From Kiritimatiellia bacterium (GTDB lineage: Bacteria; Verrucomicrobiota; Kiritimatiellia; CAIQIC01; Lenti-01): DNA of 64,000 nt. Shown in pieces: positions 11,906-48,980 of the stretch. A program made the position numbers and the translations under genes. Each line of letters starts with the position of its first letter. Position 1 is the stretch's first letter. The notes below the pieces were generated by a model that did not search any database, was not told the origin of the DNA, and saw only the letters and a program-made list of their open reading frames with translations. Location of the stretch: positions 160 through 64,159 of the forward strand of contig JAFXQI010000022.1 of assembly GCA_017527155.1 (NCBI GenBank). Direction: 5' to 3'.

Positions 11906-11920
11906 CGGATTGCAGGGCCC

Positions 11921-14179: not shown

Positions 14180-14192
14180 CGTGTGTCTCCGA

Positions 14193-28803: not shown

Positions 28804-28804
28804 T

Positions 28805-28818
28805 GCGATATCAAGGAA
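28805..28818 (+). promoter_or_regulatory. conserved upstream element GCGATATCAAGGAA (copy 1), 41 nt before the ATGAAA start of paralog B
   Basis: Same 14-mer at 35094 and, inverted, at 29641. Followed by a TTTCC box. Confidence 0.5.
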
Positions 28819-28859
28819 TTCTCTTGCATTTCCTTCCGTTTTCATCCATCATCCCCTCC

Positions 28860-29834
28860 ATGAAAGACGAACCCATCTTCCCCCGCGGCTACCTCAAGGC
28901 CCTCGCCTCCGACTGCTTCGGCCCCTCCTGCAGCCATGCCCCCACGGCCATGCTCCTGCAGACCGTCGGCTCCCTGGCCCTCTTCACCGGCGCCCTCGCC
29001 GCGCACCTCGCCTGGTACGGAGGCAAACGCATCCTCTCCCGCCTCCGCCGCCGCGTCTCCCCGCCAGAACCCGTGCCACCTCCCGCCTCCCAAGCCCCCC
29101 TTTCCCTCCGTGGCATCCCCTCCCCCGGCGACATCGAAGACGTCTGGGACCTCGACCCGCGCACCCTCTGCGGCCGCCTTCGCATCGGCTCCCGCCTGGC
29201 CGACCTCGAACCCACCCTCGACTCCCGGTTCCTCTTCAAGAAGTCCCGCAACGGCTCCCGCCGCATCGTCGCCCGCCAACCGGGTCTCAAAGGCTGGATG
29301 AAAAAGCACGTCCCGTCCATCAAGTATTCCACCGCCATGCACTACAAGAAGCTGGCCACCCGCCTCCGCCAGCTCACCGGCCTCGACCCGCGAATCCCCC
29401 TCGAATGGCTCCTCCCCGACAACCAAGAATCCCTCCCCGCCCTCTCCCCCTCCGACCACCAGACCGTCACCCAGGCCAAGACCCGGCTTGCCCGTCTCCT
29501 CGCCGAGCATCCCAAGGTCACCCACCTGATCCGGGCGGTCGAATCCAAGCTCGGGATCATGCGGATGGTCACGATCCGCCACATCCAGCCCCCTGGGCCG
29601 GGACGCGGGAGGAGACGGAACTCGAAAGAAATCCCCGATAATTCCTTGATATCGCGAGTCTCCCGTGGTGGATGGGCCGTGACGGCGGACGCGGTGCGCA
29701 CGCAGGCTTTCTGGGATGCGATACGGAGGGTACTGGGCGATCCCTCCCCGGATGCCGGGACCCGCCGCCTGCAATCGGACATCCGCGAATGGCTGAACGC
29801 CCCTCTGGAGGCACGCCGGAACCGGCGGCGATAG
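28860..29834 (+). CDS. hypothetical N-terminally anchored Arg-rich protein (paralog B of the 6882-7820 gene)
   Basis: 324 aa. Homologous blocks with paralog A. The conserved upstream element GCGATATCAAGGAA lies 41 nt before its ATGAAA start. Confidence 0.6.
   Translation: MKDEPIFPRGYLKALASDCFGPSCSHAPTAMLLQTVGSLALFTGALAAHLAWYGGKRILSRLRRRVSPPEPVPPPASQAPLSLRGIPSPGDIEDVWDLDPRTLCGRLRIGSRLADLEPTLDSRFLFKKSRNGSRRIVARQPGLKGWMKKHVPSIKYSTAMHYKKLATRLRQLTGLDPRIPLEWLLPDNQESLPALSPSDHQTVTQAKTRLARLLAEHPKVTHLIRAVESKLGIMRMVTIRHIQPPGPGRGRRRNSKEIPDNSLISRVSRGGWAVTADAVRTQAFWDAIRRVLGDPSPDAGTRRLQSDIREWLNAPLEARRNRRR
29641..29655 (-). promoter_or_regulatory. inverted copy of GCGATATCAAGGAAT inside the 3' part of paralog B coding sequence
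   Basis: Reverse complement reads TCGCGATATCAAGGAATTATC, matching the two upstream copies over 15 nt. Confidence 0.3.
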
Positions 29835-29991
29835 AGGTTGGGACGAGATGGCGGGGGATGGGAACGCTCTCCCACCGGATGCCGGCAGGGGAATGTGTGA
29901 ACGGCTGGATGCACAGGAGGGGAATCAGGCCGGAGAAGGGCCGAATGCAGGGTTGCATGGGAAGGGGAAGGGAGGGTATATTGAAGGGGTT

Positions 29992-31485: not shown

Positions 31486-31487
31486 AG

Positions 31488-32054
31488 ATGGCCCCCCGCG
31501 AACGCAATCTCCTTTTCGCGACGCTGGCGGTAGCGCTGCTGGCGGGCACGTGGGCGTTCCTGGCGCCGCAGCGCGCGGAGTGGAAGGACTACCGCGACCG
31601 CCGCGACGACCTGGACGACCGCCTGGCGAAGGCGGAGCGCATGCTCGGCCAGCAGGCGGACGTGGAGACGCGCCTGGCGGAGTTCCGCAAGGGCGTGCCG
31701 GTGTTCGCCGAAGGCAAGCGCGCGGAAGCGGAGCTGCTGCCGGAGGTGGACCGCATGGCGAGCCGCCACGGCCTGGCGCTGGTGCGGCGGTCGGCGTCGG
31801 ACAAGGAGCGCGAGGCGGGCGACCTCTACGAGACGACGCTGACCTGCGAGTGGGAGGGGACGCTGGACGCGCTGGTGCATTTCCTCTACGACCAGCAGTC
31901 GCAGGGCGTGGTGTCGGACATCCGGCAGCTGCGCATCCAGCCGCAGACGGGCGCGAAGCTCGGCACCCTCAAGGGCGGCTTCGAGATGGACTGCGCCTAC
32001 CGCCGCGAGGCCGCAGGCGGCGGCGCCGAAGCCGGCGGGGAGGCCGCCGAATGA
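31488..32054 (+). CDS. PilO/GspM-like pilus assembly protein
   Basis: N-terminal TM helix (LLFATLAVALLAGTWAF), coiled coil, C-terminal PilO-like domain. Start overlaps the stop of the PilMN-like gene (GTGAAGATG). Confidence 0.55.
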   Translation: MAPRERNLLFATLAVALLAGTWAFLAPQRAEWKDYRDRRDDLDDRLAKAERMLGQQADVETRLAEFRKGVPVFAEGKRAEAELLPEVDRMASRHGLALVRRSASDKEREAGDLYETTLTCEWEGTLDALVHFLYDQQSQGVVSDIRQLRIQPQTGAKLGTLKGGFEMDCAYRREAAGGGAEAGGEAAE

Positions 32055-32092
32055 CCGCCCGGCGCACAACCGACCCCGGACGCGGGAAATCC

Positions 32093-32134
32093 CGATTGCA
32101 GTCGATTGCAATCGATTGCAGTCGAATGCAATCG
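32093..32134. repeat. four tandem 10-mers CGATTGCAGT/CGATTGCAAT/CGATTGCAGT/CGAATGCAAT, 56 nt upstream of the secretin start
   Basis: Read directly from the sequence; 10-bp (one helical turn) periodicity. Confidence 0.8.
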
Positions 32135-32189
32135 AAAAACCCGCCCGGGCCGCAAGGAGACGTTTGACCACAACGACGGAGTCGAGAGC

Positions 32190-35048: not shown

Positions 35049-35093
35049 TCTTCCCCCTCCCCCACCCCATTCCCGCTTCCCTTCCGGCCATTC

Positions 35094-35107
35094 GCGATAT
35101 CAAGGAA
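35094..35107 (+). promoter_or_regulatory. conserved upstream element GCGATATCAAGGAA (copy 2), 41 nt before the ATGAAA start of the transglutaminase-like gene
   Basis: Exact 14-mer repeat. Immediately followed by a perfect hairpin with a T-run. Confidence 0.5.
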
Positions 35108-35132
35108 AAACCGAACCTTTCATTCGGTTTTT
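35106..35132. terminator. perfect hairpin AAAAACCGAA-CCTTTCA-TTCGGTTTTT (secretin terminator and/or 5'-leader attenuator of the next gene)
   Basis: 10-bp stem including A/T runs on both sides. Sits between the conserved upstream element and the ATG at 35149. Confidence 0.55.
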
Positions 35133-35148
35133 CCCCCAACCTCCCCCC

Positions 35149-36987
35149 ATGAAAACCCACCGCCCGGCACCCGCCCCCGGGCTCGAGTTTTCGGCTGGCG
35201 GAGAGAAGGGTGGACGCGGTAGCATGTACGGCATGAACCCCATCCCCCCCGACTACATCCCCGTCCCCTCCTCCCTCATGGAGGAGTACTCCTCCGCCGC
35301 GACGCTCTCCGACATGGAGATATTCATCTTTCCCCGCCTGCTCTATCCCCTGGTCCTGGCAAACATGATGTCCCCGGCCCTCTGGCGCTGGCGCGACGAC
35401 CCGTGGTTCGCGAACTCGGCCCGCCTCAGCCCCTACCGCCGCATCCTGCGCCTCAAGCAGTTCATCATGGACCACTACACCTTCAACCTCGACCTCGAAA
35501 CCTGGGGCCTGACCACCCAGCGCCGCGAGCTCGACCGCTTCGCGCGCTACATGCCGCCCGAGACGATCGCGCGCTCCAACGCCCTCTTCGGCTACCACGG
35601 CGACCGCTTCTACTTCGACCTCGACATCCGCCGCCACTTCGGCCTCGACAAATACTCCGGCGACACCATCCCCTACTGGAAGACCGAGACCCTCGAAGCC
35701 ATGGACGCCTTCCGCCACCGCCCCGGACACGCCACCGGCGCCGGCGAATGCGTCTCCCTCTCGACCCTCTACGCCGCGGCCCTGCACGTCCACGCCGGCA
35801 TCCCGCTCGACGACATCTACCTCCTCGCCACGCCCCTGCACTCCCAGAACTTCGTCGACCTCGGCGACGGCATCCTGACCAACAACCGGCGTCTCGTGAC
35901 GAAGGCCATGTGGTACAACGGCACCGCCCTGAGCGCGAAGGCCCGCCGCGCCCTCGAGCACGAACGCCTGACCATCGTCTCGCACCTCACCGGCCACATC
36001 CACACCGTCTATCCCGAAGCGACCATCTCCCCCGACGCCTACGCCCGCTTCCAATTCCGCCTCCGCGCCTTCGCCGCGACCGACCCCACCGCCGAAATCC
36101 TCTGCAACTTCCTCCGCCAGGCCCCGCACCGGCAGCCGTGCTTCCAGATCGAGGCGACCATCAACGGCAAACCCCGCTGGCTGCCCGCCGAGAAAGCCTA
36201 CGCCTTCGAGAACTCCGGCTCCTACAAAGTCTCCGACTCCACCCGCGACCGGCTCCTGGCGGGCATCGACGAAGACGAATTCTTCGCCGCGCCCATCCCC
36301 GACCGCATCCCCCTCAACCGCTTCGACGCCTTCTTCCGCAACCACCCCGTGCGGCTCGACGACCCGGCCGACCGCCAGGCCCTCGCGCGCGAATTCGACT
36401 GCTTCCGCACCGGCGTCTGCGAGATCGCCGACGAACTGGCCGCCTTCTGCCGCCTCGAACCCCGATGGCCCGACGCCGACGGTCCCGCCAAGACCTTCGT
36501 TCCCTCGCCGGCCCTCCGCATCCCCGAAGGCCCCGACTTCACCCGCGAAGCCCTCGTCGAGGCCCTCGCCGCACAGCGCCGGACCAACCCCGTCGCCGAC
36601 CTCGCCTTCTACGTCTGGCGCGACCTCTCCCGTACCGACCCGCGCCCCTTCCTGAAGGCGGCCGTCGAGCGCTCCCCCGTCTGCGACGAAGCCACCCGCG
36701 CCGTCGCCACCGGAGACCTCCCCGCGCTGGTCCGCGACCTCCCCGACGAATCCATCTACGGCGAAGGCCCCCGCGCGGCCCAACCCGACGAAGTCTGGAA
36801 CTCCCGCCGCGGCGACGGCCTCGAAAAAGCCGTCCTGCTGGCCGCCCTCCTGCACGCCCGCGCTCCCGGCGAAGCGCTGTCGCTCGAATCGGACGGCCGC
36901 ACCGCCCGCCTCCGCTTCGGCACCCAAGACCACCTCTTCCCCACCACCAACCCGGCGGTTCTCGAAGCGGCCTACGACCCCGCCTAG
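35149..36987 (+). CDS. transglutaminase-like (Cys-His-Asp) domain protein
   Basis: 612 aa. Core GAGECVSLSTLYAAALHVHAGIPLDD...LHSQNFVDLGDG matches the transglutaminase-like cysteine-peptidase fold pattern (C ... H-x-x-F/W-V-E/D ... D). The conserved upstream element lies 41 nt before the start. Confidence 0.5.
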   Translation: MKTHRPAPAPGLEFSAGGEKGGRGSMYGMNPIPPDYIPVPSSLMEEYSSAATLSDMEIFIFPRLLYPLVLANMMSPALWRWRDDPWFANSARLSPYRRILRLKQFIMDHYTFNLDLETWGLTTQRRELDRFARYMPPETIARSNALFGYHGDRFYFDLDIRRHFGLDKYSGDTIPYWKTETLEAMDAFRHRPGHATGAGECVSLSTLYAAALHVHAGIPLDDIYLLATPLHSQNFVDLGDGILTNNRRLVTKAMWYNGTALSAKARRALEHERLTIVSHLTGHIHTVYPEATISPDAYARFQFRLRAFAATDPTAEILCNFLRQAPHRQPCFQIEATINGKPRWLPAEKAYAFENSGSYKVSDSTRDRLLAGIDEDEFFAAPIPDRIPLNRFDAFFRNHPVRLDDPADRQALAREFDCFRTGVCEIADELAAFCRLEPRWPDADGPAKTFVPSPALRIPEGPDFTREALVEALAAQRRTNPVADLAFYVWRDLSRTDPRPFLKAAVERSPVCDEATRAVATGDLPALVRDLPDESIYGEGPRAAQPDEVWNSRRGDGLEKAVLLAALLHARAPGEALSLESDGRTARLRFGTQDHLFPTTNPAVLEAAYDPA

Positions 36988-37244
36988 CGCGGTCCAAGAA
37001 ACAGTCGGCCCTCCATCCATCGTCCCGCCGGGCATTTTCCACCGCGGACGCGCAGAAGCGCGTCCCTCCCCGTGGCGCGCCCGGCAGGAGGGTCGCGCTT
37101 TCGCGCGACCATGCATCCGGAATGCCGCAGGACCATCGGCTGGGTGTCTGCGGGCGGAAGAACGGCGGCGTCCCAAATGGCCGAAAAGGCGTGCAATCGG
37201 GTCGTGGACGGGATAGGATGGACGCAAACCAACTTGGAGTAACC

Positions 37245-40200
37245 ATGAGCTTGGACAAAAACGCCAACGAAATCGTCGATACGCCCCTCCGCGGGCGGTG
37301 GTGGATCTCGGCCGCGCTGGCCGCGGGCGCGCTCGGACTGTACCTCGCGACGCTCAGCCGGGGCGTGTTCCCCGGGATGCCGGCGAAGAACCTGGTATGG
37401 CACCTGCATCTGGACGCGTTTCCGACGCTGCTCGACCCGGTATGGGGCTGGCTCGTCCGCCAGTGCGGCCGCTTCGGCGGCGAGGCGCTCGGCTCCGCCG
37501 TGCTGAGCGCGGTCTGCGGCGCGCTGTGCGTGTTCTTCCTCTCCGCGCTGATGATGCGCGTGCGCTACACGGTCCACGAAAAGGAAGACCCCGGCGAGGT
37601 CGCCCGCGAGGAACAGGCCCGCCGCCTGGCCGGCATCGTGTCGGGCATCGCGCTGGCGGTGAGCGTCCCCTTCTGGGTCCACGCGACGCGCTCGATGCCG
37701 GGTACCTTCCACCTGCTGCTGCTGCTCGCGGCGACCTGGCTCTTCTCGGAGTACCAGCGCGAAGGCAAGACCGGAACCCTCTACTGGTTCGGTTTCGTCT
37801 ACGGCATCGGCATCCCCGAGTTCGCGACGTTCATCCTCTTCGCGCCGCTGGCGGCCATCCTCGTCGCCCGCGCGATGCTCCAGCGGGCCTCGTTCCGGTG
37901 GAGCACGATGGTCGGCACGGCCCTCTGCGCGCTGCCGCCGATGATCATCCTCTACATCCTCAACGGGAGCTTCCTCTGGAACACGGATCCGTCCATCCCG
38001 CTGCATCCGCTCTGCCCGTCGCTGCCGGCGGTGATCTGGCGGATGATGGTGGACCAGTGGCGCCTGATCGCGGGCGCGCCGATGATGATCCTGCTGTTCG
38101 CGATGACGGCGCTTCCCTGGATGATCCTCTACCTGATCCGCAGCAAGAAGGCGGCCTGGCGCTACAACGCCTGGCAAACGCTCCTGCGCCTCGCGGTGCT
38201 GGCGGCGGCCTGCGCGGCCATCTTCAACACGGCCTTCTCCCCGTGGCACTTCTTCGGCATGGCGTTCCCGCTGGTGACCCCGTACCTGATCCTGGCCATC
38301 TGCGCCGGCACGGTCGCGGGCGAATTCTGGGTGATGGGCCAGTCGCGCGACCACAAGGCGGTGGGGATCGGCCAGCCGCTGCGCAAGGTGTGCGGGACCA
38401 TCGCGCTGCTGCTGCCGGCGGCGTTCGCCGTCGCGGGCGTGCTGAACGCGAAGGTCGCCGACGGCCGCGCCGGCACCAAGATCGCCGCCCTCCTGGACCA
38501 GACGGTCGAGTCGCTCGCCGACCACGACCTCGTCCTCTCGACGGGCGTGCTGGACGACGCCCTCCGCGTGGCGGCGCACGAGCACGGCGCGAAGCTGCGG
38601 GTGATATCGATGCCCGCGGCGGGCACGGAAACCTACCTGAAGTTCCTCTCCGAGACGGCCTTCAAGGAACCGCGCCAGCGCGCCCTCCTGCAAGTGGGCT
38701 TCGGCGCGTTCATCCAGGACTACCTGGCGAACGACGCGCACCTCATCAAGACCGCCGCGATCGACTCCGCCGACCTCCTCCGCGAGTTCGGCTACCTCGT
38801 CCCCGACGGCCTGGTCTCGACCGCCGTCCCCACCCCCGACCGCGCCGACTGGAACGTCGTGCTCGGCGAGCGCCTCCCGGCCTTCCGCGGCCAGATGGAG
38901 GCCCTCCAGGCGGACGCCGCCGACCCGCGCAACCCCATCCGCCCCTACGAACAGTACGTCCTGCGCCTTGCGTCGAAGACCTTCAACAACGTCGGCTTCG
39001 CGCGCGTCGAAGCCGGCGACAAGGAAGGCGCGGTCCCCTACTTCGAGACCGCCCGCGCCCTCTATCCCGACAACATCTCCGCCCTTCTCAACCTCCTCAC
39101 CCTCGCGCGCGACGCCAAGTCCCCCTCCCTCGAACCCCTCGAAGCCGACTGGAAGGCCCTCGTCGACCGCGGCCTGAACAACCGCGTCATGCAGTCCCTC
39201 GGCCACCTCTACGGCTACGTCTACAACACCGGCTACCTCGTCCGCAACGGCATGATGTGGGCCGTCTCCGGCCGCCCGAGGATGGCCGAAGCCGAACTCC
39301 GCCGCGCCGCCGGCGGCCAGTCCGTCGATCCCGCCGCCAAGGCGTTCCTCGCCCGCGCGTTCCTTGCCACCGGCGATCGCGAGACCAGCGCCCAGTACTT
39401 CCGCGAAGCCCTCGAAAACAAGCCCGGCGACCCCTCCGTCCGCCTCAAGCTCGCCGAAATCGCGATGTCCGAGGGCGACCTCGACGCCGCGCGGGAGCAG
39501 CTCGACGCCCTCGCCGCCGACGGCGTCCCCGCGGAAGCGCTCGCCTTCGACCGCATCGTGATGCAGTACCTCGGCGGCGACGCCGACGGCGCCGTCCTGG
39601 CCCTCAAGGAGCGTACCGCGAAGCACAAGCAGGACGTCCGCGCCTGGTCCTTCCTCGCCTACCTCACCGGCGACGGTTCCGATCCCGAGACCTACGAGCG
39701 CGCCCTCAAGGCCATCAAGTCCCTCCGCGGCGCCTCCCCCGAGACGCGCCTGCTCCTCGCCGAACTCTATTCCAAGCGCCACGAATGGGGCGACGCCCGC
39801 GCCGAACTCGAACAGGTCCTCCGCCTGAACCCCCGCCTCGTCAAGGCGTGGGAGATGCTGGTCGCCGTCGACTTCGGCGAACGCAAGCGCGACCTGGCCG
39901 AAGACCACGTCCGCGCCCTCCTGACGCTCGATCCGTCGAACCACGAAGGCAACCTCATGCTCGGCTCCTTCCAGTACGAGCGCGGCCAGTATTCCCTCGC
40001 CGCCGCCTCCTACCGAACCGCCCTCGAAGCCAAGCGCACCCCCACCTGCCTCAACGACCTCGCGTACATCCTCATCGGCGAAGGCAGCTACGCCGAAGCC
40101 GAGTCCCTCATCGACGAAGCCTGCGCCATGAAGCCCGACGACCCGCTCCTCCTCTCCACCCGCGGCGAACTCTACCTCCGCACCGGCCGTCTCGACGAAG

Positions 40201-40397
40201 CCGAAACCGACATCCAGCAGGTCCTCTCCGTCCTTCCCGACAACCTCCAGATGCAGCTTCTCGCCGCCGAACTCTACCACGCCCGCGGCCAGGACCCCGC
40301 CGCCCGCCAGATCCTCGACACCCTCCGCGGCCGCGTCCACGAGTTTCCCGCCGACCTCCAGGCCCGTCTCCAGGACCTCCTCCGCGACGTCCCGTGA
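37245..40397 (+). CDS. polytopic membrane protein with C-terminal TPR repeats (GT-C-fold / DUF2723-TMEM260-like, paralog 1 of 3)
   Basis: 1050 aa. About 11 TM helices in the first ~480 aa, then ~550 aa of TPR repeats (many A-x-x-Y / L-x-x-A periodicities). N-terminal block LYLATLSRGVFPG resembles the DUF2723 start. Confidence 0.5.
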   Translation: MSLDKNANEIVDTPLRGRWWISAALAAGALGLYLATLSRGVFPGMPAKNLVWHLHLDAFPTLLDPVWGWLVRQCGRFGGEALGSAVLSAVCGALCVFFLSALMMRVRYTVHEKEDPGEVAREEQARRLAGIVSGIALAVSVPFWVHATRSMPGTFHLLLLLAATWLFSEYQREGKTGTLYWFGFVYGIGIPEFATFILFAPLAAILVARAMLQRASFRWSTMVGTALCALPPMIILYILNGSFLWNTDPSIPLHPLCPSLPAVIWRMMVDQWRLIAGAPMMILLFAMTALPWMILYLIRSKKAAWRYNAWQTLLRLAVLAAACAAIFNTAFSPWHFFGMAFPLVTPYLILAICAGTVAGEFWVMGQSRDHKAVGIGQPLRKVCGTIALLLPAAFAVAGVLNAKVADGRAGTKIAALLDQTVESLADHDLVLSTGVLDDALRVAAHEHGAKLRVISMPAAGTETYLKFLSETAFKEPRQRALLQVGFGAFIQDYLANDAHLIKTAAIDSADLLREFGYLVPDGLVSTAVPTPDRADWNVVLGERLPAFRGQMEALQADAADPRNPIRPYEQYVLRLASKTFNNVGFARVEAGDKEGAVPYFETARALYPDNISALLNLLTLARDAKSPSLEPLEADWKALVDRGLNNRVMQSLGHLYGYVYNTGYLVRNGMMWAVSGRPRMAEAELRRAAGGQSVDPAAKAFLARAFLATGDRETSAQYFREALENKPGDPSVRLKLAEIAMSEGDLDAAREQLDALAADGVPAEALAFDRIVMQYLGGDADGAVLALKERTAKHKQDVRAWSFLAYLTGDGSDPETYERALKAIKSLRGASPETRLLLAELYSKRHEWGDARAELEQVLRLNPRLVKAWEMLVAVDFGERKRDLAEDHVRALLTLDPSNHEGNLMLGSFQYERGQYSLAAASYRTALEAKRTPTCLNDLAYILIGEGSYAEAESLIDEACAMKPDDPLLLSTRGELYLRTGRLDEAETDIQQVLSVLPDNLQMQLLAAELYHARGQDPAARQILDTLRGRVHEFPADLQARLQDLLRDVP

Positions 40398-40431
40398 TCC
40401 GACCGCCCGCCTCCGACGCCCGCTCCGCCGC

Positions 40432-40471
40432 CGATTGCCGTCGATTGCCCTCGATTGCAGTCGGTTGCAGC
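40432..40471. repeat. four tandem 10-mers CGATTGCCGT/CGATTGCCCT/CGATTGCAGT/CGGTTGCAGC, 25 nt upstream of TPR-membrane paralog 2
   Basis: Same CGATTGCNNT family as 32093-32134, again x4 with 10-bp phase. Confidence 0.8.
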
Positions 40472-40495
40472 CGCTTTCCCCGGAAGGCTCCCTGA

Positions 40496-43400
40496 ATGCC
40501 CGTCGGCGCATCCAGCCCCATTCCCATCCCCCGCCAGCCGCCCCCTCCCCCGCCGCCGGTGACGGGGTGGCGCCGGTTGCTGGTGCCCGCGGCGTTCTTC
40601 CTCCTCGCCCTCGTGCTATACGGCACCCTCGTCGGCGCCGCCCCCTTCCCCGGCGCCCCGGCGCACGCGCTGGTGGACGCCCTCCGGCTCGACGGACCCG
40701 GCGTATCCTCGGCGCCCGTCTGGGAAACCCTGGTCCGCCTTTCCGCCCGCGCCGGTCTCCCGCCCGCCGCGGCGATGAACGTCTTCAGCCTCTTCTGCGG
40801 CGCGCTCGGCATCGCGATCCTCGTCTGGCTCGTGCTCCAGATGCCCTACCGCACGGTCCCCGGCGCCATGGCCGCGGACGTGGTCCGCGAGCGCCAGGCG
40901 CGCGTCTTCGCCGCCGTCTCCACCGGCCTCTACCTCCTCGCCAGCACCCCCTGGGCCCTCGCCTCCACCCGCTCCCTGCCGCAGACCTTCCACCTGCTGG
41001 TCTTCGGCATCGCCCTCTGGCTCCTCGCGCGCCACGCCCAGACGGGACGCGACCGCTGGCTCTTCGCGCTGGGCGGCTGGCTCGCGGCGGGCTCGCTGGA
41101 GTACCCGTTCTTCTGGCCGCTGCTGCTGCTCATGCCCATCGCCGTCGCGGTGTCGCTCTTCCACAACGGCCGACTCGGCAGCGGACGCTCCTGGCTCCTC
41201 TGGCTGCTCGGGCTTCTCCTCGGCGCCTCGGCCTACGTCCTGCACGCCTGGCATCTCATCCGTTCCGGCCACGCCACCTCCGCCTCCCTCGGCGGCACGC
41301 TTCTCGCGGTCCTGGCGAACCGCGCCGAAGTCTTCCTCCCCTACCGCCATCCCGGCCTCCTCTCCGCCTTCGCCCTTGCGTGGGTGCCGGTGCTGGTCCT
41401 CTTCCTCGGTTCCCGCCGCAGCCCGTGGTACTACGGCAAGGACCAGATGTTCCTGCGCCTCGTCCTCGCGGTCCTGGCGGTGGCGTGGCTCCCGGCGGAA
41501 CTGGCCCTCCTCATGCGCATCACCCGCACCGTCTTCGTCGCGCTGCTCCCTGACGCCGCGCTCGCGGTGGCCGTCGGCTGCATCGCCGGCGAATTCTGGA
41601 TCCACGGCCAGCGCCAGCTCGACGACAACGAATGGCCGCGCCGCTTCTACCGCGGATTCCACTCCGCCCTCGCCTGGGTCCTTCCCGTCGCCCTCGCCGG
41701 CGTCGTCTTCTGGCAGCGTCCCGTCGCCGACGCGCGCCCCGCGTCGATCGTCTACGGTACCGCCCGCACCCTTCTCTCGCGCATGGCCCCCGGCGACCGC
41801 ATCGCGGAATTCGGTTCCATCCCGATTCCCGGCGACGGCGGCATGGCAGACCTCCTGCGTCTGGCGAACCTGCATCCTGACCTCATGCGCGGGCAAGCGG
41901 AACACCCGTGCTGCGGCGGCCGCGTCCTGGTCTTCGACTGGTCCCGCCTGGCCGATCCCTCCTACTTCCTCTGGGCGCGCGCCCGCTGGACCGACCCCGT
42001 CCCCGCCGCCGACGCCGCCACCCCCACCCTCTTCTCCAACCACATCCTCCGCCAGATGGCGGCCGACCCGCCGCCCCCCGGCGCCCACGACACCGTCTTC
42101 CTCGTCCCGCCCCCCACCCCGCTCCCCGGCATCCGCCTCGTCCCCGACGGCTGGCTCTACCGCCCCGTGCCATCCCCCACCCCGTGGTCCCCCGTGCCCC
42201 TTCCCCCCGACCCCACCCCCTTCTGGGACGTCCTCGCGCGCGCCGCCGACCGCTTCCCGTCCGACCGCAATCCAGCCGCCCAGCTCTTCCGCAGCTTCCT
42301 CGCGCTGATCTCCCGCAACGCCGACGCCTACGGCGTCCTCCTCGCCGAATCCGGCGACCCCGCCGCCGCCGACCGCGTCTTCGGGGCCGGACTCGCCCTG
42401 TCCCCCGACAACCTCAGCCTGCTCGCCAACCGCATCCCGCCCGACGCCCTGACGCCGATTCCCGCGACCCTCCCCGCCGGCGCCGATTCCCTCCAGACCG
42501 CCATGTACGACCGCGAAGGCCGCCTCTGGGGCCTCGATCTCCTCTACGGCCCCATCCTCGACCCCGAAACCCGCGCCACGCATCCCGACTGGCTCTTCGT
42601 CTGCTCCGGCATCCCGCCCGACCGCCTCTCCGCCCTCTCCCCCGGCGCCCCGCCGCCCGACGACCCCCTCCCGCCCGACGTATGGGAGCGCATCTTCCGC
42701 CACGCCCTCGCCCCCGCGCCGACCTTCCCCGCCGTCTTCTCCCGCCTCCGCACCGACCCGCGCGACTCCGACGCCCTCCTCGCGCTCCTGCGCCTCTTCA
42801 TCCTGCACCACCGTCCCGAACTCGCCGCTTCCACCCTCACCCACCTCGTGCGCATCGGCTTCGACGAAGAACTCCTCCAGCCCGAGATCGCCTGCATCGA
42901 GCGCCTGCGAGGCAACATCGGCGGCTCCGTCGAACACGCCCGCCGCCACCTCGCCAACACCCCGTCCGACATCTCCGGATGGCTCGCCATCCTCTGCTGG
43001 ACCGCGCCCCCCGATCCCCTCTTCGCGCAAGCCGTCCAGATCCTCCAGGAGCGCGCCGGACACGACCGCGAAATCCGCCTCGCCCTCGGCCTGCGCTACT
43101 GCGAACTCCACGACTGGCCCAACGCCCTCGACCAATACAACCGCGCCCTCCAGCTCCGCTCCGCCCCGCCCATCCTCCTGCGGCTGATCACCCTCTCGCG
43201 CATCCTGCAGGACGGTTCCATCGGCACCCTCCGCGCCTCCCTCCGCCGCACCGCCCCCGACCATCCCATCTTCCGCGCCTCCCTCACCCGGCGGCCCGAA
43301 GACCCCGAAACCGCCGCCCGCACCGTCCGCGACCTCCGCGAACTCGCCCGCGCCACCCGCAATCCCGAATTGCTAAACGCCGTCTGCGAGTCCATACTGT

Positions 43401-43750
43401 ATGTTTCGGGTTCGGAAGACCCCGAGATGCGCGGCTGGATGCACCAGGCCATCCACGCGCAGCCCTGGAACCCCGTCTTCCACTGCACCCTCACCGAAAT
43501 GCTGATGCTCGCCGGAGAACTGAAGGAAGCCGCCGAAGAGGCCCGCCGGTCCGTCGCCTACGCGCCGGACTTCGCCCCCGCGTGGGTGCTTTCCGGCGAA
43601 CTCTTCCGCCGCGCCGGCAAGCTCGACCAGGCCCGCCGCTGCCTCCGCCGCGCCGAAGTCCTCCCCCAGGGCGCCCTCTCCCCCACCCAGCACGAATGCC
43701 TCTCCACCCTCCGCTCCGCCCTCGCCGCCCTCCCGGAGCCCGCCCCATGA
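40496..43750 (+). CDS. polytopic membrane protein with C-terminal TPR repeats (paralog 2 of 3)
   Basis: 1084 aa. Same architecture and alignable N-terminal blocks (LVLYGTLVGAAPFPG; SLPQTFHLLVFG) as paralogs 1 and 3. Confidence 0.5.
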   Translation: MPVGASSPIPIPRQPPPPPPPVTGWRRLLVPAAFFLLALVLYGTLVGAAPFPGAPAHALVDALRLDGPGVSSAPVWETLVRLSARAGLPPAAAMNVFSLFCGALGIAILVWLVLQMPYRTVPGAMAADVVRERQARVFAAVSTGLYLLASTPWALASTRSLPQTFHLLVFGIALWLLARHAQTGRDRWLFALGGWLAAGSLEYPFFWPLLLLMPIAVAVSLFHNGRLGSGRSWLLWLLGLLLGASAYVLHAWHLIRSGHATSASLGGTLLAVLANRAEVFLPYRHPGLLSAFALAWVPVLVLFLGSRRSPWYYGKDQMFLRLVLAVLAVAWLPAELALLMRITRTVFVALLPDAALAVAVGCIAGEFWIHGQRQLDDNEWPRRFYRGFHSALAWVLPVALAGVVFWQRPVADARPASIVYGTARTLLSRMAPGDRIAEFGSIPIPGDGGMADLLRLANLHPDLMRGQAEHPCCGGRVLVFDWSRLADPSYFLWARARWTDPVPAADAATPTLFSNHILRQMAADPPPPGAHDTVFLVPPPTPLPGIRLVPDGWLYRPVPSPTPWSPVPLPPDPTPFWDVLARAADRFPSDRNPAAQLFRSFLALISRNADAYGVLLAESGDPAAADRVFGAGLALSPDNLSLLANRIPPDALTPIPATLPAGADSLQTAMYDREGRLWGLDLLYGPILDPETRATHPDWLFVCSGIPPDRLSALSPGAPPPDDPLPPDVWERIFRHALAPAPTFPAVFSRLRTDPRDSDALLALLRLFILHHRPELAASTLTHLVRIGFDEELLQPEIACIERLRGNIGGSVEHARRHLANTPSDISGWLAILCWTAPPDPLFAQAVQILQERAGHDREIRLALGLRYCELHDWPNALDQYNRALQLRSAPPILLRLITLSRILQDGSIGTLRASLRRTAPDHPIFRASLTRRPEDPETAARTVRDLRELARATRNPELLNAVCESILYVSGSEDPEMRGWMHQAIHAQPWNPVFHCTLTEMLMLAGELKEAAEEARRSVAYAPDFAPAWVLSGELFRRAGKLDQARRCLRRAEVLPQGALSPTQHECLSTLRSALAALPEPAP

Positions 43751-43822
43751 CCGCCCGCTTGCCCCATCCCGGCATCGCATCCGCGCATTCCCTCCTGCAC
43801 GGCCTGGAAATCCCATGCTCTA

Positions 43823-43844
43823 GGCGGGCAGGGGACTGCCCGCC
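43823..43844. terminator. GC hairpin (GGCGGGCAG-GGGA-CTGCCCGCC) downstream of TPR-membrane paralog 2, nested in a larger GCCCTACCC/GGGTAGGGC inverted repeat
   Basis: 9-bp stem, no T-run, so it may be a structural/REP-like element rather than a terminator. Confidence 0.3.
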
Positions 43845-44025
43845 CTACCCCGGGACGCTCCCCCTGCGCAGAGGGCGGGTAGGGCGGCGAGTCCCCTCCC
43901 CGCCGCGCAAACGCCTGGCACCTCCTGGCCAATGGGATTCGCGGATGCGTCCTCCGCGTCCGTCCCCTCTCCGTCGTCCGTATCCGCTCAGCGGTTCCCG
44001 GGTTTTCCATGTAAATAATCCGCAT

Positions 44026-44055
44026 CTTGTCACTTGTCACTTGTCACTTGTCACT
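44026..44055. repeat. four tandem heptamers CTTGTCA, ending 18 nt upstream of the TPR-membrane paralog 3 start
   Basis: CTTGTCACTTGTCACTTGTCACTTGTCACT read directly. Confidence 0.8.
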
Positions 44056-44072
44056 CCCTTCTCCTCTCGCCC

Positions 44073-47000
44073 ATGAGTTCACCCTCCTCCAATCTCCCCC
44101 CTCCCCGCCCCGGCTTCCTCCCCGGCCTCCTCGACCGCATCCGCTCCCGTCTCCGCCCCGCACCGCCCCCGCGCAAGCCCCCGACCCTCGGCAGCTTCAC
44201 CCCCGACGGCAAATTCCAGTTCTTCCAGCCCCGCGACGTCGACGCCTTCTTCGAAGGCCGCGACGCCCACGCCGCCATCAAGTTCGACGCCTACGCCCAC
44301 CTCCATCCCCGCCGCTGGGTCCTCGACATCGCCCTCTTCTGCATCGCCCTGGTCCTCTACCTCCTGACCATGAGCTGGTCCGCCTTCCCCGGACCGCCCA
44401 CCAACGAACTCCTCTCCAAGATGAGCGTCGAGGCCACCCCCTCCCCCACCGACTTCCTCTGGGGCTGGGCCGTCCGCCTCCTCGACCGCTTCCCCGTCCT
44501 TCCCCTCCCCTCCTGGATGGGACTCGTCTCCGCCTTCTTCGGCGCCCTGACCGTCGCCATGCTGACCGACCTGATGATGAACGTCGGCTACCTCGTCCGC
44601 AACGAACCCGGCCCCTGGTCCTTCGAATTCGAAGCCTACGGCCGCCGCCTTTCCGCCTTCTGCGCCGGCCTTTTCCTCGCCATCTGCCCGCCCTTCTGGA
44701 TCGCCTCCACCCGCTCCCTCCCGCACACCTTCCACATGGCGATGCTGATGGCCTGCGCCTGCCTCTTCTCCCGCTACCAGCACTGGGGCCGCAAGCGCGA
44801 CCTCTTCGCCCTGGCCTTCCTCTTCGGCATCGGCTGCACCGAATCCTCCGCCTTCCTCGTCTTCCTCCCCGCCTTCATCCCGCTGATGATCCGCGAACTC
44901 GTCCGCTGGAACAAGGCCTCCTCCTTCGGCCACCACCTCCTCCTCTGGGGCACCCTCGCCCTCTCCGCCGCCGGCCTCTACGCCTTCAACGCCCACGTCC
45001 TCTACAAGCGCGGCCTCTTCATGGAAATCTACGCCTCGCCCCTCGACGCCCTCCTCGGCATCCTCCGCGCGCAGCTTTCCGTCGTATCCGCCGCCAACGG
45101 CCACCCCGGCTTCCTCGTCCTGATGGCGTTCACCCTCATCCCGTGGCTCATCGCCTTCCTGATCACCCACCGCTCCCCGTGGTTCTACGAGCGCTGGGAA
45201 GTCTGCGTCCGCATCACCTGCCTCGCCGGCCTCCTCGGCATCCTCTACGACTGCAACTACTCGCCCTGGAAACTCATGGGCATGTACCCCTGCCTCGTCA
45301 CCCCCTACCTCCTCGTCGCCGGCTCCTTCGGCTACATCTGCGGCGAATTCCTCATCTTCGGCGAGCGCAACAAACTCTGCGAAATCCGCACCTGCCAGAA
45401 GGTCCTCCACCGCGTCTCCTTCGTTTTCGCCCTCTGCCTGCCCTTCCTCGTCGCCGGCGCCGCCGTCCGCAACTACGGCACCGCCGACGGCCGCTACGCC
45501 CGCCTCGTCGAAGACGCCTCCCTCGACATCCTCGACCGCCGCGGCGCCGGCCGCGACATCTTCTTTTCCTCCGGCATCCTCGACAACACCCTCCGCCTCC
45601 TCACCTGGCAGAAGCGCGACCCCACCTGCTTCATCAACACCCGCCAGCTCAACTCCCGCACCTACCTCAAGACCCTCACCCGCTTCATCATCGACCCCGT
45701 CCTCACCCCCATGCTCGCCAAGGGCGACATCATCCAGTTCCTCGACGAACTCCTCCTCAACCGCGGCGACTACTTCCGCATCGGCCTCATCGACTTCACC
45801 AACCCCGTCTTCCTCGAATACGGCGACTTCGTCCCCGACGGCTACTTCTACACCGTCGAACCCGACCTCGCCTCCGTCGACTGGACCGCCCGCTTCGAGC
45901 ACCAGCGCCCCTTCTGGAAACTCCTGCAGGACATGCGCGACACCCCCATCCCCGAGGGCAACCCCATGTACCGCTTCCGCGAAGCCCTCCTGCGCATCGC
46001 CGGCAAGGGCATCGACAACTTCGCCATCGAACTCCTCCGCGCCGGACGCCCCGCCGACGCCAACGAAGTCCTCCGCATCGGCCACGGCATCGACCCCGAA
46101 AACGTCTCCATCCTCCTCAACCTCGCCTCCATGGCCTCCGAGTACCCCCTCGAAGAAGGCTTCGACCCCGACGCGGAAGTCGACCGCATCATCCCCCTCA
46201 TCCACGGCCACCGCTGGAACTGCGGCGCCAACTTCGGCTTCGTCTGGGACGCCCGCTCCTGGGTCCGCAACGGACGCGTCTGGGCCATCTCCGCCGAAGT
46301 CCCCCGCACCCTCGCCCAGCGCCGCGCCGCCGAAAACAACTTCGAGGAAGACGCCCTCCACGCCAAGTGGATCGACATCGCCTTCGGCCTCTACGGCGTC
46401 CCCCGCCCCGACGAAATCGCCTGCCGCAACGCCCTCGTCCGCGACGACCACGACCAGCACGCCCTCCTCGAACTCGCCTTCCTCGCCATGCGAGCCAAGG
46501 ATCTCGAAATGGCGCGCGCCTACATCGTCGAAGCCCTTTCCGTCGGCCATGCCGAAGCCGAAGTCGCCTTCCACCGCGCCCTCCTCCAGTACCTCGACGG
46601 CGAGCGGGCCGAAGCCTTCGAATCCGTCCGCTACCAGACCACCTACGACACCCTCAACGAGCGCCTCTGGATCACCGACCTGCTCATGGCCGAAGACGCC
46701 AACGACGAAAAGGAAATCTACCGCGCCCGCTCCGCCCTCGCCATGTTCCGCCCCGGACTCCTCGGCACCCACCTCTCCCTCGCCCGGCACTTCATGGACC
46801 TGAAGCTCTGGCGCCTCGCCCAGCGCGAACTCGACCGCGCCGCCGAGATCGCCCCTTCCACCGTCATCCTCTGGGAGATGATGGGCGAAGTCGCCTCCCA
46901 GACCGGCAACGCCGCCCTCATGCAGGTCTCCCTGCGCGCCCTCCAGGCCCGCAACCCCCAGCACTACCTCAAATACCAGAACGAAGGTCTCCTCGCCTAC

Positions 47001-47420
47001 CAGCAGGGCGACCTCGAACGCGCCGAAAAAGCCTTCCGCAACGGCATCGTCCAGCAGCGGAACCCCTTCCTCCTCAACAACCTCGCCCACGTCATCACCG
47101 AGCGCGGCGGCGACTACTACAACGCCCTGTCCCTCGTCGAAGAAGCCATCCGCCGCGACCCCACCGAAATCTCCTTCCTCGCCACCCGCGCCGCCGTCAA
47201 CCTCCACCTCGGCGACCCCGCCGCCACCCTCCGCGACCTCTTCGTCCTCAAGCAGGCCGGCCAGATGAACCACTCCCGCTGGCTTCTCTGCATGGAAGCC
47301 CTCGTCCAGCTCGGCAAATGCGAAGAAGCCCGCCGCGTCGGCCTCTCCATCGCCCGCGACCCCGCCCTCTCCCCCTCCGACCTCTCCCGCATCCACGACC
47401 TCATCGCCTCCTGCAAATAG
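44073..47420 (+). CDS. polytopic membrane protein with C-terminal TPR repeats (paralog 3 of 3)
   Basis: 1115 aa. Same architecture (LVLYLLTMSWSAFPGPP; SLPHTFHMAMLM). ATG at 44073 is preferred over the upstream TTG inside the heptamer repeat. Confidence 0.5.
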   Translation: MSSPSSNLPPPRPGFLPGLLDRIRSRLRPAPPPRKPPTLGSFTPDGKFQFFQPRDVDAFFEGRDAHAAIKFDAYAHLHPRRWVLDIALFCIALVLYLLTMSWSAFPGPPTNELLSKMSVEATPSPTDFLWGWAVRLLDRFPVLPLPSWMGLVSAFFGALTVAMLTDLMMNVGYLVRNEPGPWSFEFEAYGRRLSAFCAGLFLAICPPFWIASTRSLPHTFHMAMLMACACLFSRYQHWGRKRDLFALAFLFGIGCTESSAFLVFLPAFIPLMIRELVRWNKASSFGHHLLLWGTLALSAAGLYAFNAHVLYKRGLFMEIYASPLDALLGILRAQLSVVSAANGHPGFLVLMAFTLIPWLIAFLITHRSPWFYERWEVCVRITCLAGLLGILYDCNYSPWKLMGMYPCLVTPYLLVAGSFGYICGEFLIFGERNKLCEIRTCQKVLHRVSFVFALCLPFLVAGAAVRNYGTADGRYARLVEDASLDILDRRGAGRDIFFSSGILDNTLRLLTWQKRDPTCFINTRQLNSRTYLKTLTRFIIDPVLTPMLAKGDIIQFLDELLLNRGDYFRIGLIDFTNPVFLEYGDFVPDGYFYTVEPDLASVDWTARFEHQRPFWKLLQDMRDTPIPEGNPMYRFREALLRIAGKGIDNFAIELLRAGRPADANEVLRIGHGIDPENVSILLNLASMASEYPLEEGFDPDAEVDRIIPLIHGHRWNCGANFGFVWDARSWVRNGRVWAISAEVPRTLAQRRAAENNFEEDALHAKWIDIAFGLYGVPRPDEIACRNALVRDDHDQHALLELAFLAMRAKDLEMARAYIVEALSVGHAEAEVAFHRALLQYLDGERAEAFESVRYQTTYDTLNERLWITDLLMAEDANDEKEIYRARSALAMFRPGLLGTHLSLARHFMDLKLWRLAQRELDRAAEIAPSTVILWEMMGEVASQTGNAALMQVSLRALQARNPQHYLKYQNEGLLAYQQGDLERAEKAFRNGIVQQRNPFLLNNLAHVITERGGDYYNALSLVEEAIRRDPTEISFLATRAAVNLHLGDPAATLRDLFVLKQAGQMNHSRWLLCMEALVQLGKCEEARRVGLSIARDPALSPSDLSRIHDLIASCK

Positions 47421-48980
<1,560 letters not shown>

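Follow-up and report, generated by a model that had tools for sequence, protein, structure and literature searches.

Three consecutive genes, here called P1, P2 and P3, encode bacterial relatives of human TMEM260 with the same three-domain layout and form a self-contained operon, P1-(P2)-P3, without conserved neighbours. They lie in a stretch of 64,000 nucleotides (the window) from an uncultured rumen Kiritimatiellae bacterium. We favour, with modest confidence, the reading that they are operon-encoded periplasmic protein glycosyltransferases of the TMEM260-like GT-C type with a remodelled donor site. No experimental study of any clade member was found in the literature searched.

The gene set and its spacers

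The genome has a GC content of about 70%, and for this reason numerous spurious ORFs appear in the window; the reading frames of the three genes on the + strand were chosen by third-position GC (GC3). The main features of the set are as follows.

37183..37244, + strand: conserved leader/promoter region, the left limit of DNA homology to relatives
37245-40397, + strand: P1, 1050 aa, TMEM260-like (GT-C membrane, Rossmann-like and TPR parts), GC3 frame
40427-40468, + strand: tandem repeat CGATTGCNNT x4.2 (CGATTGC array) in the P1-P2 spacer, period 10 (TRF)
40496-43750, + strand: P2, 1084-aa paralog, fast-evolving middle class, GC3 frame
43757..44062, + strand: 306-nt lineage-specific insert in the P2-P3 spacer
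about 43822-43903: long hairpin within the 306-nt insert, fold z-score -2.3
44026-44055: CTTGTCA x4.3 repeat, 100% match, within the 306-nt insert (TRF)
44073-47420, + strand: P3, 1115-aa paralog, GC3 frame

The initial annotation had described three consecutive, co-directional paralogs with shared N-terminal blocks that arose by an old triplication, and all of this was confirmed. The proteins are mutually 24-30% identical and alignable end to end (identity to P1 27-30% in the full-length alignment; P2 to P1 and P3 24-27%), with BLASTP scores among them of 146-349 bits, far above chance, and the blocks (L)YL.T(L/M)S...FPG.P and TRS.P.TFH are the same in all three. The age of the triplication is evident from the P1 and P3 orthologue classes, which were found throughout Kiritimatiellia. 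P1 is the best-conserved class (orthologues in Kiritimatiellia MAGs 50-57% identical), and P3, whose orthologues are 35-41% identical, closes the set in relatives. In addition, P3 carries about 80 extra conserved residues at its N-terminus (F.QPR..D..FEGRD.H), predicted to be cytoplasmic, which are common to the homologs P0101, P0105 and P0126.

The P1 start at 37245 is backed by a 60-nt leader kept in two relatives. Homology to RUG11196 (L002) and RGIG6903 (L003) begins at 37183/37184 in blastn, and the leader AAAAGGCGTGCAATC...CAAACCAACTTGGAG is kept in all three aligned sequences, DNA further upstream being unrelated. An ATG at 37218 was rejected as the start, as this ATG is without conservation in relatives.

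The tandem repeats reported ahead of P2 and P3 both exist, and the spacer repeats are lineage-specific. The CGATTGCNNT repeat is present in a 96% relative and missing from a 78-88% relative, while the 306-nt insert that holds the CTTGTCA repeat was found in contigs of the window's own lineage (L039-L044), with 56 nt in its place in the 97%-identical RUG11196 contig. The suggestion that these repeats provide independent regulation of the paralogs is thus unsupported, also because the end of P2 overlaps the start of P3 by 4 nt in two other lineages.

Domain order and donor-site substitutions

Assignment to the DUF2723/TMEM260-like family, as first proposed, is supported by Pfam PF11028 (cut-off 24.2 bits), which matches P1 and P3 at 33.2 and 32.0 bits; P2, with 15.1 bits, falls under the cut-off. 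When the family profile was compared by hhalign with a vertebrate TMEM260 profile, a probability of 80% and an E-value of 1.4e-5 were obtained, and the alignment was colinear across 469 columns comprising the membrane and Rossmann-like domains. The AlphaFold model of P1 (pLDDT 88.9) shows a GT-C membrane fold with 11 TM helices, then five strands and then TPR:

37296..38459, + strand: P1 membrane domain, aa 18-405, 11 TM helices, GT-C fold
38460..38849, + strand: P1 Rossmann-like "palm", predicted periplasmic, aa 406-535, carrying invariant D437 and R408
38850..40388, + strand: P1 TPR superhelix of about 30 helices, predicted periplasmic, aa 536-1048

Accordingly, the earlier two-part description holds for a membrane part followed by TPR; its membrane domain of about 480 aa is really about 405 aa (11 helices), and it missed the Rossmann-like domain of about 130 aa that precedes the TPR part (about 510 aa). 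The palm strands of the model (429-432, 452-455, 503-506, 517-521 and 524-528) fall in a region aligned by hhalign to TMEM260 residues 413-557, and the cryo-EM layout of TMEM260 is GT-C 24-415, Rossmann-like 416-564, then TPR (bioRxiv 10.64898/2026.03.17.711096). Many TPR Pfam families match the TPR part of P1, and a Foldseek search with the full-length model matched the OGT TPR domain, Ctr9 and APC subunits. Pfam searches of the paralogs gave no PMT or MIR-domain match, and no TMTC- or PMT-type family was listed at E<=0.1.

Pmt4 was the best fold match, and ArnT, AftA/AftB/AftD, Emb, ALG and PimE were also found. As the latter enzymes modify lipids or glycans, and a remodelled sugar pocket implies another donor or acceptor, P1-P3 might be GT-C transferases acting on a non-protein acceptor (polysaccharide, lipid A/LPS-like lipid or peptidoglycan), with the TPR part docking envelope machinery. 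We regard this as quite unlikely: TMEM260, the closest sequence family, and Pmt4 are both protein O-glycosyltransferases, the Rossmann-like and TPR parts constitute a peptide-gripping unit in TMEM260, and the Asn-rich TPR motifs look like those of peptide-binding TPRs. N610 and N616 are invariant in a 65-sequence alignment, N563 and N937 nearly so, and all four are common to P1, P2 and P3; at the sequence level this pattern is reminiscent of the Asn ladder with which TMEM260 and OGT bind peptides.

D52 and H67 of TMEM260 are essential donor-sugar residues (D52A is inactive), D441 is the catalytic base, and GT-C enzymes usually carry an acidic motif directly after TM1. In all three paralogs D52 aligns to Pro46 or Met/Ala/Pro45, H67 aligns to Pro/Gly60, and the acidic motif right behind TM1 is absent. 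The reported replacement of the catalytic motif by FPG(M/A/P)P was borne out, the canonical form being PGGDSGE. Both equivalents are lost throughout the FPGxP subfamily (at least 119 members), and the PF11028 model begins exactly at D52, whereas P1-P3 match only from profile position 44. The equivalence of R355 differs by alignment (Glu360 in one, Phe341 in the other), with no basic residue at either; P3 and most relatives have Arg in the R264 column, where P1 has Val and P2 has Ala.

These losses, together with a TPR part of about 500 aa vs about 140 aa in TMEM260 and a fast-evolving P2 below the Pfam threshold, would suit non-catalytic GT-C-fold proteins, i.e., periplasmic TPR scaffolds, chaperones or receptors with a lipid-binding membrane anchor and a role in envelope or surface-protein biogenesis. 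PIGU, a GT-C fold used inside GPI transamidase, offers a model for such proteins. However, across 229 diverse full-length family members, several polar residues on the predicted periplasmic face are nearly invariant (R149 in 224, E192 in 210, Q271 in 207, R408 in 198, D437 in 216 and Y464 in 212), which points to a ligand or active site kept by selection, and D437 is an Asp kept in the loop corresponding to the catalytic-base loop of D441. Moreover, in a sister subfamily with [FY]PGxS, about half of the members have Glu/Asp at the position matching D52, and E360 occurs only where an acidic residue is missing there, a pattern compatible with relocation of the acidic residue rather than its loss. 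The non-catalytic reading therefore seems rather unlikely to us.

As periplasmic protein glycosyltransferases, P1-P3 would be inner-membrane enzymes, with the N-terminus inside and the TPR part in the periplasm, using a polyprenyl-phosphate-sugar-type donor. On the periplasmic side, the 11-helix membrane "wrist" would hold the lipid-linked sugar, the elongated TPR "fingers" would grip an extended segment of an exported protein, and the palm would offer a Ser/Thr hydroxyl to D437. With D52 and H67 substituted and no basic counterpart of R355, P1-P3 probably either use a different sugar from TMEM260 with its Dol-P-mannose or hold it differently. Pmt1-Pmt2 assemble as a hetero-oligomer, and it is possible that the ancient P1 and P3 and the optional P2 either split acceptor specificities or form a hetero-oligomer as well.

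Genomic contexts of the operon

The order P1-(P2)-P3 is maintained in at least 30 loci of Kiritimatiellia metagenome genomes; P1 and P3 are always co-inherited, and P2 is missing from about half of the related loci. The set had been placed between a secretin module and a giant Ig-repeat gene, which is correct for the window except that a 612-aa gene and an enolase intervene:

32106-35048: secretin gene, upstream of P1
35149-36987: unannotated, unrelated gene (612 aa) between the secretin gene and P1
about 47700-48980: housekeeping enolase between P3 and the giant gene
49265 to beyond 63985: giant gene, opposite strand, convergent to P1-P3

From this arrangement it had been proposed that the paralogs form a dedicated system glycosylating the giant adhesin, or pilins of the secretin/PilN module, each paralog having its own specificity. 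The order secretin, 587-aa gene, P1-P2-P3, enolase and giant gene does recur in at least five independent assemblies of the window lineage, and the giant protein (5784-6070 aa in full-length contigs) has HYDIN/VesB-like Ig, ASH, DUF1573, fn3 and LTD domains in Pfam; TMEM260 modifies Ig-like IPT domains (PMC10214176) and TfpW a pilin. However, the giant protein has no IPT/TIG domain according to Pfam, no pilin gene adjoins P1-P3 in the window, and the enolase, the convergent orientation and the 612-aa gene separate the set from both presumed partners.

Comparison with 37 loci of other genomes, and with additional metagenome contigs, weighs further against this proposal. The set was found intact in at least six unrelated genomic contexts, and the secretin, enolase and convergent giant gene accompany it only in the window lineage. 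In the rumen genome RUG11196, a 96-98% identical set shares homology with the window confined to 37183-47544, with a gyrB/parE-like gene and an esterase at one flank and GT2 and holB at the other. The chief Kiritimatiellia context is accB-accC-cofD-like-C1, then the set, then HAD and dCMP deaminase; such housekeeping/envelope-precursor surroundings (accBC, CofD/YvcK-like) in most genomes might be taken to favour the non-protein acceptor considered above. By tblastn, the 37 other loci gave no giant-gene or enolase match near the set, the sole secretin match, in one locus (L036), being a distant paralog with 25% identity that lies about 7 kb downstream. The co-occurrence with Ig-repeat giants expected by the initial annotation is thus nearly, though not wholly, absent elsewhere: in one other lineage a 1999-aa EEP/LTD/TSP3/fn3 surface protein gene lies directly upstream and co-directional, which shows that the set is occasionally found beside genes of large surface proteins. 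Given the unrelated contexts and the RUG11196 copy, synteny lends no support to a link with the giant protein or secretin, and a dedicated system is very improbable. Across the compared loci, no sugar-donor synthase, flippase or acceptor gene was consistently linked to the set.

Comparison with known glycosyltransferases

Human TMEM260, a protein O-mannosyltransferase (PDB 9RQL/9RQM/9RQN), shares PF11028 with P1 and P3, as well as the module order (11-TM GT-C, five-stranded Rossmann-like, TPR) and the invariant Asp in the D441 loop. Anchors between TMEM260 and the paralogs are P49-G50 with P43-G44, D413 with D406, and G440...L447-R448 with G434...L440-R441. Apart from the donor-site substitutions (Pro/Met/Ala for D52, Pro/Gly for H67, no basic R355 equivalent) and the shorter TPR part, identity is about 16%, and TMEM260 is ER-luminal whereas the paralogs are probably periplasmic. 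No redundant paralog is apparent for TMEM260 (PMC10214176), in contrast to the two or three tandem paralogs of the bacterial set.

The sister [FY]PGxS subfamily (about 1050 aa; e.g., P0097, P0153 and P0181) has the length and domain order of P1-P3, was picked up with the same profile (210-330 bits) and shares the family-wide invariant residues. It differs in Ser at 46, in Glu/Asp at 45 in about half of the members and in lacking Glu360 of AGEFW; PF11028 scores are higher than for P1-P3 (about 46-52 bits in three of four tested), and the match begins earlier, at profile position 17-20 (31 in the fourth).

In yeast and fungal PMTs (Pmt1/Pmt2, Pmt4; GT39), a first-loop DE motif missing from the paralogs is present, and the soluble module is MIR instead of Rossmann-like plus TPR. 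TMTC1-4 belong to a sequence family separate from P1-P3 and, to our knowledge, have no Rossmann-like domain between GT-C and TPR. The likeness lies in the general plan, in which an extended TPR array on the non-cytoplasmic side succeeds the GT-C membrane domain, the TMTCs, which serve cadherin O-mannosylation, having luminal TPRs (PMC7801869, PMC10214176). Among bacterial GT-C enzymes, Pseudomonas aeruginosa TfpW is a pilin D-arabinofuranosyl transferase of 646 aa with a GT-C DDX motif. Its N-terminus is cytoplasmic, and 11 TM helices lead to a C-terminal periplasmic TPR; it glycosylates a secreted protein, and its gene immediately follows pilA, which encodes the substrate (bioRxiv 10.1101/2020.04.19.049825). 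Unlike TfpW, P1-P3 have neither the acidic motif nor an adjoining pilin, and the likeness noted is one of architecture; TfpW sets a precedent for protein glycosylation by a bacterial 11-TM GT-C enzyme with periplasmic TPR.

Gene models and immediate neighbourhood

In the window, which has a GC content of ~70% and carries long spurious ORFs on both strands, the true reading frames were picked out by third-position GC content. This frame choice, together with pairwise end-to-end alignment (27-30% identity to P1; BLASTP 146-349 bits), confirmed that the region holds three tandem paralogs (P1, P2 and P3) at the positions given by the initial annotation. The true P1 shares the frame of ORF 35403-40397; its start at 37245 is supported by a 60-nt leader conserved in relatives, one of which has lost the alternative upstream ATG at 37218 to a disruption. 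A competing ORF (37298-40495, +, 1065 aa) was rejected because its translation is Arg/Pro-rich nonsense, produced out of frame by the high GC content.

Genes and elements around P1-P3
25445-27928, +, ComEC, upstream
28755-29834, +, unannotated 359-aa gene, upstream
29848-31485, +, protein with a C-terminal PilN domain, upstream; a small ORF lies between it and the secretin
32106-35048, +, secretin, upstream
35149-36987, +, unannotated gene of 612 aa (587 aa in gene calls), between secretin and P1
37245-40397, +, P1, 1050 aa, third-position GC frame
40496-43750, +, P2, 1084 aa, third-position GC frame
44073-47420, +, P3, 1115 aa, third-position GC frame
~47700-48980, enolase, downstream of P3
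48999-49022, strong bidirectional terminator, 3' of enolase
49265 to beyond 63985, -, giant gene with HYDIN/VesB-like Ig, ASH, DUF1573, fn3 and LTD domains

The initial description places the triplet between the secretin and the giant gene; that order stands, and the direct adjacency does not, because each side has one intervening gene and the giant gene runs convergently. The giant protein reaches 5784-6070 aa in longer contigs, and no IPT/TIG domain was found in it by Pfam. The 612-aa protein, whose gene was seen only in contigs of the window's own lineage, has no Pfam hit and no obvious membrane segment, and its GHATGAGEC motif presumably recalls transglutaminase-like Cys proteases.

The 280-nt spacer between P3 and enolase (47421-47700) is extremely C-rich, with CTCCTCC x7, CTCCCGT x4 and a 25-nt unit x2.4; it contains no terminator-like hairpin, and read-through from P3 to enolase is therefore possible in the window lineage. 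Promoter prediction gave no sigma-70-like candidate in the region. A minus-strand exopolysaccharide-type cluster (5784-15389), more than 20 kb away from the triplet, could be a source of undecaprenyl-linked sugars.

Members of the exopolysaccharide-type cluster
14193-15389, -, Wza-like Poly_export/SLBB protein
11921-14179, -, Wzc-like chain-length/tyrosine-kinase protein
10346-11905, -, Bac_transf initiating sugar transferase
~5784-6750, -, NAD epimerase

Family and fold of the three proteins

Against the PF11028 gathering score of 24.2 bits, P1 (33.2 bits) and P3 (32.0 bits) lie above the cut-off and P2 (15.1 bits) below it; P2 is counted in the TMEM260-like family because of its full-length paralogy to P1 and P3. 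These matches, the many TPR matches (Pfam) in the C-terminal half of all three proteins and the profile alignment bear out the DUF2723/TMEM260-like assignment made at the outset. The full-length AlphaFold model of P1, built on 65 homologues, reached a pLDDT of 88.9 (86.7 in a further model) and comprises 11 membrane helices (residues 18-405), a five-stranded alpha/beta domain (406-535) and ~30 TPR-type helices (536-1048), the last of which, judging only from the positive-inside rule, probably lie on the non-cytoplasmic (periplasmic) side. In the full-length fold search TPR proteins crowded out other hits, and residues 1-565 were therefore modelled separately; predicted structure and fold comparison supported a GT-C-like membrane domain.

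An hhalign comparison of the Kiritimatiellia family profile with a vertebrate TMEM260 profile (TMEM260 sequence from the PDB sequence file, 9rql_A) gave a probability of 80% and an E-value of 1.4e-5, colinear over 469 columns (P1 21-528 versus TMEM260 28-557). PDB sequence searches with P1 or the profile returned TPR proteins only, or nothing. When the N-terminal domain of P1 was the sole query, word-indexed searching for homologues gave just two proteins, and a four-sequence profile was used instead. With human TMEM260 as query, the best 120 matches listed were all vertebrate orthologues. None of the Pfam families PMT, PMT_2 and MIR matched P1-P3 at E<=0.1, and the likeness to PMT (GT39) is structural only, with neither the DE motif nor MIR domains present.

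P3 differs from P1 and P2 by a conserved, predicted cytoplasmic N-terminal extension (aa 1-82, 44073-44320; consensus F.QPR..D..FEGRD.H....D), which is also carried by the P3-class orthologues P0101, P0105, P0126 and P0137 and suggests a class-specific cytoplasmic interaction or regulation.

A full HMMER scan of 1.84 billion representatives recovered 800 clusters at E<=1e-3, of which 320 also passed E<=1e-30; the listed ones are mostly ~1050 aa long. A separate observation concerns one homologue, P0093 (L045:2991-6131, 1046 aa, on a Logan contig), in which the equivalent of membrane-domain residues 66-409, 57% identical to P1 and matching from profile position 66, is joined to HYDIN-like Ig and TIG domains; its neighbours are NeuB, CMP-sugar synthetase and methyltransferase genes (nonulosonic acid synthesis). 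It was set aside as evidence, since a genuine domain swap and an assembly chimera are both possible.

The gene set in related genomes

At 37 loci from other genomes the set recurs as a P1-class gene (50-57% identical), an optional fast-evolving middle gene and then a P3-class gene (35-41%); P2 and P3 overlap by 4 nt in two lineages, as is typical of a tight operon. The flanking genes differ between lineages.

Flanking genes of the set by lineage (upstream; downstream)
Window lineage (at least five independent assemblies): secretin, 587-aa gene; enolase, giant gene
Main Kiritimatiellia clade: accB, accC, 769-aa CofD/YvcK-like gene, 472-aa protein with Asp-box-like motifs; HAD hydrolase, dCMP deaminase, peptidase-like gene
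RUG11196: gyrB/parE-like gene, CBM20-esterase; GT2, holB, a different secretin
RGIG6903 (78-88% nucleotide identity): 310-aa basic membrane protein adjacent, ComM/ChlI-like gene further away; unannotated 552-aa gene
Lineage with P1 78% identical: 310-aa basic membrane protein; epimerase, RuvB
Lineage with P1 64% identical: 1999-aa EEP/LTD/TSP3/fn3 protein; 3D-domain protein, topoisomerase VI

The window is closest to the rumen MAG RUG11196, with which it shares 96-98% nucleotide identity limited to 37183-47544, the homology breaking off ~60 nt before P1 and ~120 nt after P3. With at least six contexts among relatives, either the cassette has moved or the genomes have undergone heavy rearrangement, the breakpoints coinciding exactly with the edges of the cassette. 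In tblastn searches of the 37 other loci, no match to the giant gene or enolase was found near the set, and the only secretin was one distant paralog ~7 kb downstream in a RUG11196 contig (L036). In the window no pilin gene is adjacent to P1-P3, and the secretin/PilN module is separated from them by an unrelated gene. Judged by the linkage test set out with it, the initial proposal of a glycosylation system dedicated to the neighbouring adhesin or pilus was thus not borne out by synteny, the linkage not being conserved. A loose association of the set with large surface proteins is possible, because the 1999-aa LTD/fn3 protein adjoins it in one lineage. More generally, adjacency to a striking neighbour such as a giant adhesin or a secretin is not functional evidence when close relatives place the cassette elsewhere.

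The tandem repeats reported upstream of P2 and P3 are both real; what found no support, given their lineage restriction, is their regulatory reading. The CGATTGC array in the P1-P2 spacer is absent from the 78-88% relative, and the CTTGTCA array in the P2-P3 spacer lies, alongside a long hairpin, within a 306-nt insert (43757-44062) that is present in contigs of the window's own lineage and is replaced by 56 nt in the RUG11196 copy (97% identical). The repeats are young lineage-specific spacer features rather than conserved elements of regulation.

Several other neighbours were observed. In the main clade, proteins of 450-470 aa without a Pfam hit (cluster C1; L027:4727-6142 and 23 other loci) are always encoded directly upstream of P1, and their two Asp-box-like motifs (SADNGATW and SPDGGGSW) suggest, at the sequence level, a BNR/sialidase-like beta-propeller. 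No C1 homologue was found in the window, where the genes at 35149-36987 and 28755 were compared as candidate relatives and neither proved related. A multi-copy family of basic proteins (~310-360 aa, one predicted TM helix, no Pfam hit) shares the motifs SLRG.P.P, LR.GSRLADLDPTLD and YSTAM.YKKL.

Members of the basic protein family
28755-29834, +, window
~6849-7814, +, window
8769-9815, L003 (RGIG6903)
8670-9599, L046

A member lies immediately upstream of P1 in two relatives with differing wider contexts, and the window copy at 28755-29834 lies upstream of the PilN-secretin block, which (29848-36987) may therefore have been inserted between the basic gene and P1. In a goat-rumen MAG (L037:2-9604), an ORF of >3200 aa upstream of the set carries RadC, ART-PolyVal and MuF_C domains; it was rejected as an adhesin since these are domains of phage or conjugative-element polyvalent proteins, which suggests mobile DNA beside the cassette there.

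Donor-site residues and possible function

GT-C enzymes typically carry conserved acidic residue(s) (DxD, DE or DDx) beside TM1, in their first extracytoplasmic loop. No acidic motif of this type was found next to TM1 in P1-P3: within ten residues of the first loop after TM1 there is no Asp/Glu in P1 or P3 (P3 has Glu49 and P2 Asp51), and the only acidic first-loop column common to the three is position 57 (D/D/E), acidic in 136 of the 229 members of the family alignment. The replacement of the canonical motif by FPG(M/A/P)P was confirmed, and the residue loss was both confirmed and defined more sharply by profile alignment with TMEM260. The cryo-EM structure of the human enzyme, which dates from 2026, comprises a GT-C domain, the 'wrist' (24-415, 11 helices), a Rossmann-like domain, the 'palm' (416-564), and TPRs, the 'fingers' (565-706). 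Contacts to Dol-P-mannose come from D52 and H67 (first luminal loop), R264/Y267 (donor-loading loop) and R355; D441 in the palm serves as catalytic base, and D52A, H67, R264A, Y267A and D441A substitutions are inactive (bioRxiv 10.64898/2026.03.17.711096).

In hhalign, TMEM260 P49-G50 corresponds to the invariant P43-G44, and D52 to Pro46 (or to position 45 by the register of the Pfam profile, which begins at D52). Positions 45-46 are M-P in P1, A-P in P2 and P-P in P3, leaving no acidic residue at the D52 site. At the position of H67 (HPPGYP), P1 has P60, P3 likewise has P, and P2 has G; across the family the column holds P in 134, L in 32 and G in 8 members. The PF11028 match of P1 begins only at profile position 44, and the D52-H67 segment is therefore not recognisable. 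At column 269, the candidate counterpart of R264, Arg occurs in 164/229 members and in P3, with Val in P1, Ala in P2 and Arg residues nearby; for Y267, most members have a W/Y aromatic shortly after this column. The register here differs by one between the two alignments. R355 corresponds to Glu360 or Phe341, depending on the alignment. In the palm, G440...L447-R448 of the D441 loop aligns with G434...L440-R441 in the same strand-1/helix-1 loop, where Asp437 is found in 216/229 members and the Asp of P2 is shifted by one residue; Asp437 is a candidate counterpart of D441, the loop being one residue shorter than in TMEM260, so that exact equivalence is not readable from sequence. R149, E192, Q271, R408 and Y464 are nearly invariant polar residues of the predicted periplasmic face or palm.

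The family falls into subfamily A (at least 119 members, including P1-P3), with FPGxP and an AGEFW motif containing Glu360, and subfamily B, with [FY]PGxS, no Glu360 and Glu/Asp at position 45 in about half. An acidic position 45 and Glu360 occur together in none of the 229 members; this mutual exclusion would fit a relocated acidic residue, and it is confounded by shared ancestry. By source names and contig titles, subfamily A comes from Kiritimatiellia; the labels of some contigs read Lentisphaerae or Verrucomicrobiota, and every source is an uncultured MAG.

The best-supported reading is that P1-P3 are a set of periplasmic enzymes that glycosylate proteins and share the build of TMEM260; in them, the membrane domain would hold a lipid-linked sugar in an altered donor pocket, and the TPRs and palm would grip the acceptor peptide, with D437 as candidate base. 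The co-inheritance of P1 and P3 may point to split specificities or to a heteromer, as in Pmt1-Pmt2. The reference activity of the TMEM260-like family is O-mannosyl transfer from polyprenyl-phosphate-mannose to Ig-like (IPT) domains, an activity that would be conjectural for P1-P3. The main rival holds that P1-P3 form a non-catalytic GT-C scaffold, a role with a precedent in PIGU, which was among the fold hits. It is conceivable, though we think it unlikely, that the FPGxP/AGEFW clade is a mechanistically distinct, new GT-C branch in which the donor acid has moved from the D52 position in the first periplasmic loop to E360 (TM10) or the invariant E192, and that P1/P3(/P2) form a hetero-oligomeric protein glycosyltransferase of the periplasm whose very long TPR arms scan giant repeat-rich surface proteins, as a bacterial counterpart to the domain-specific O-glycosylation by TMEM260 that uses a different sugar.

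It was reportedly not until 2023 that TMEM260 was identified as an O-mannosyltransferase linked to human disease. To our knowledge its bacterial relatives have been mentioned merely as "distant homologs" and none has been studied; our search found no literature on bacterial TMEM260-like proteins. Here a conserved operon found throughout a bacterial class encodes two or three relatives with the full architecture, and in these relatives the residues with which human TMEM260 holds mannose are missing. If active, they would represent a new donor-binding solution in the GT-C fold and would point to protein glycosylation in PVC bacteria, a group with many giant surface proteins; if inactive, they would clearly exemplify, in bacteria, the recruitment of a GT-C fold to a non-enzymatic role.

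Among known systems, the nearest bacterial analogue by design is TfpW, which is encoded beside its pilin substrate and has a DDX motif (bioRxiv 10.1101/2020.04.19.049825), whereas P1-P3 have neither an adjacent pilin gene nor a DDX motif. TMEM260 shares the domain order of the family, the TPR region of P1 being ~3.5 times longer.
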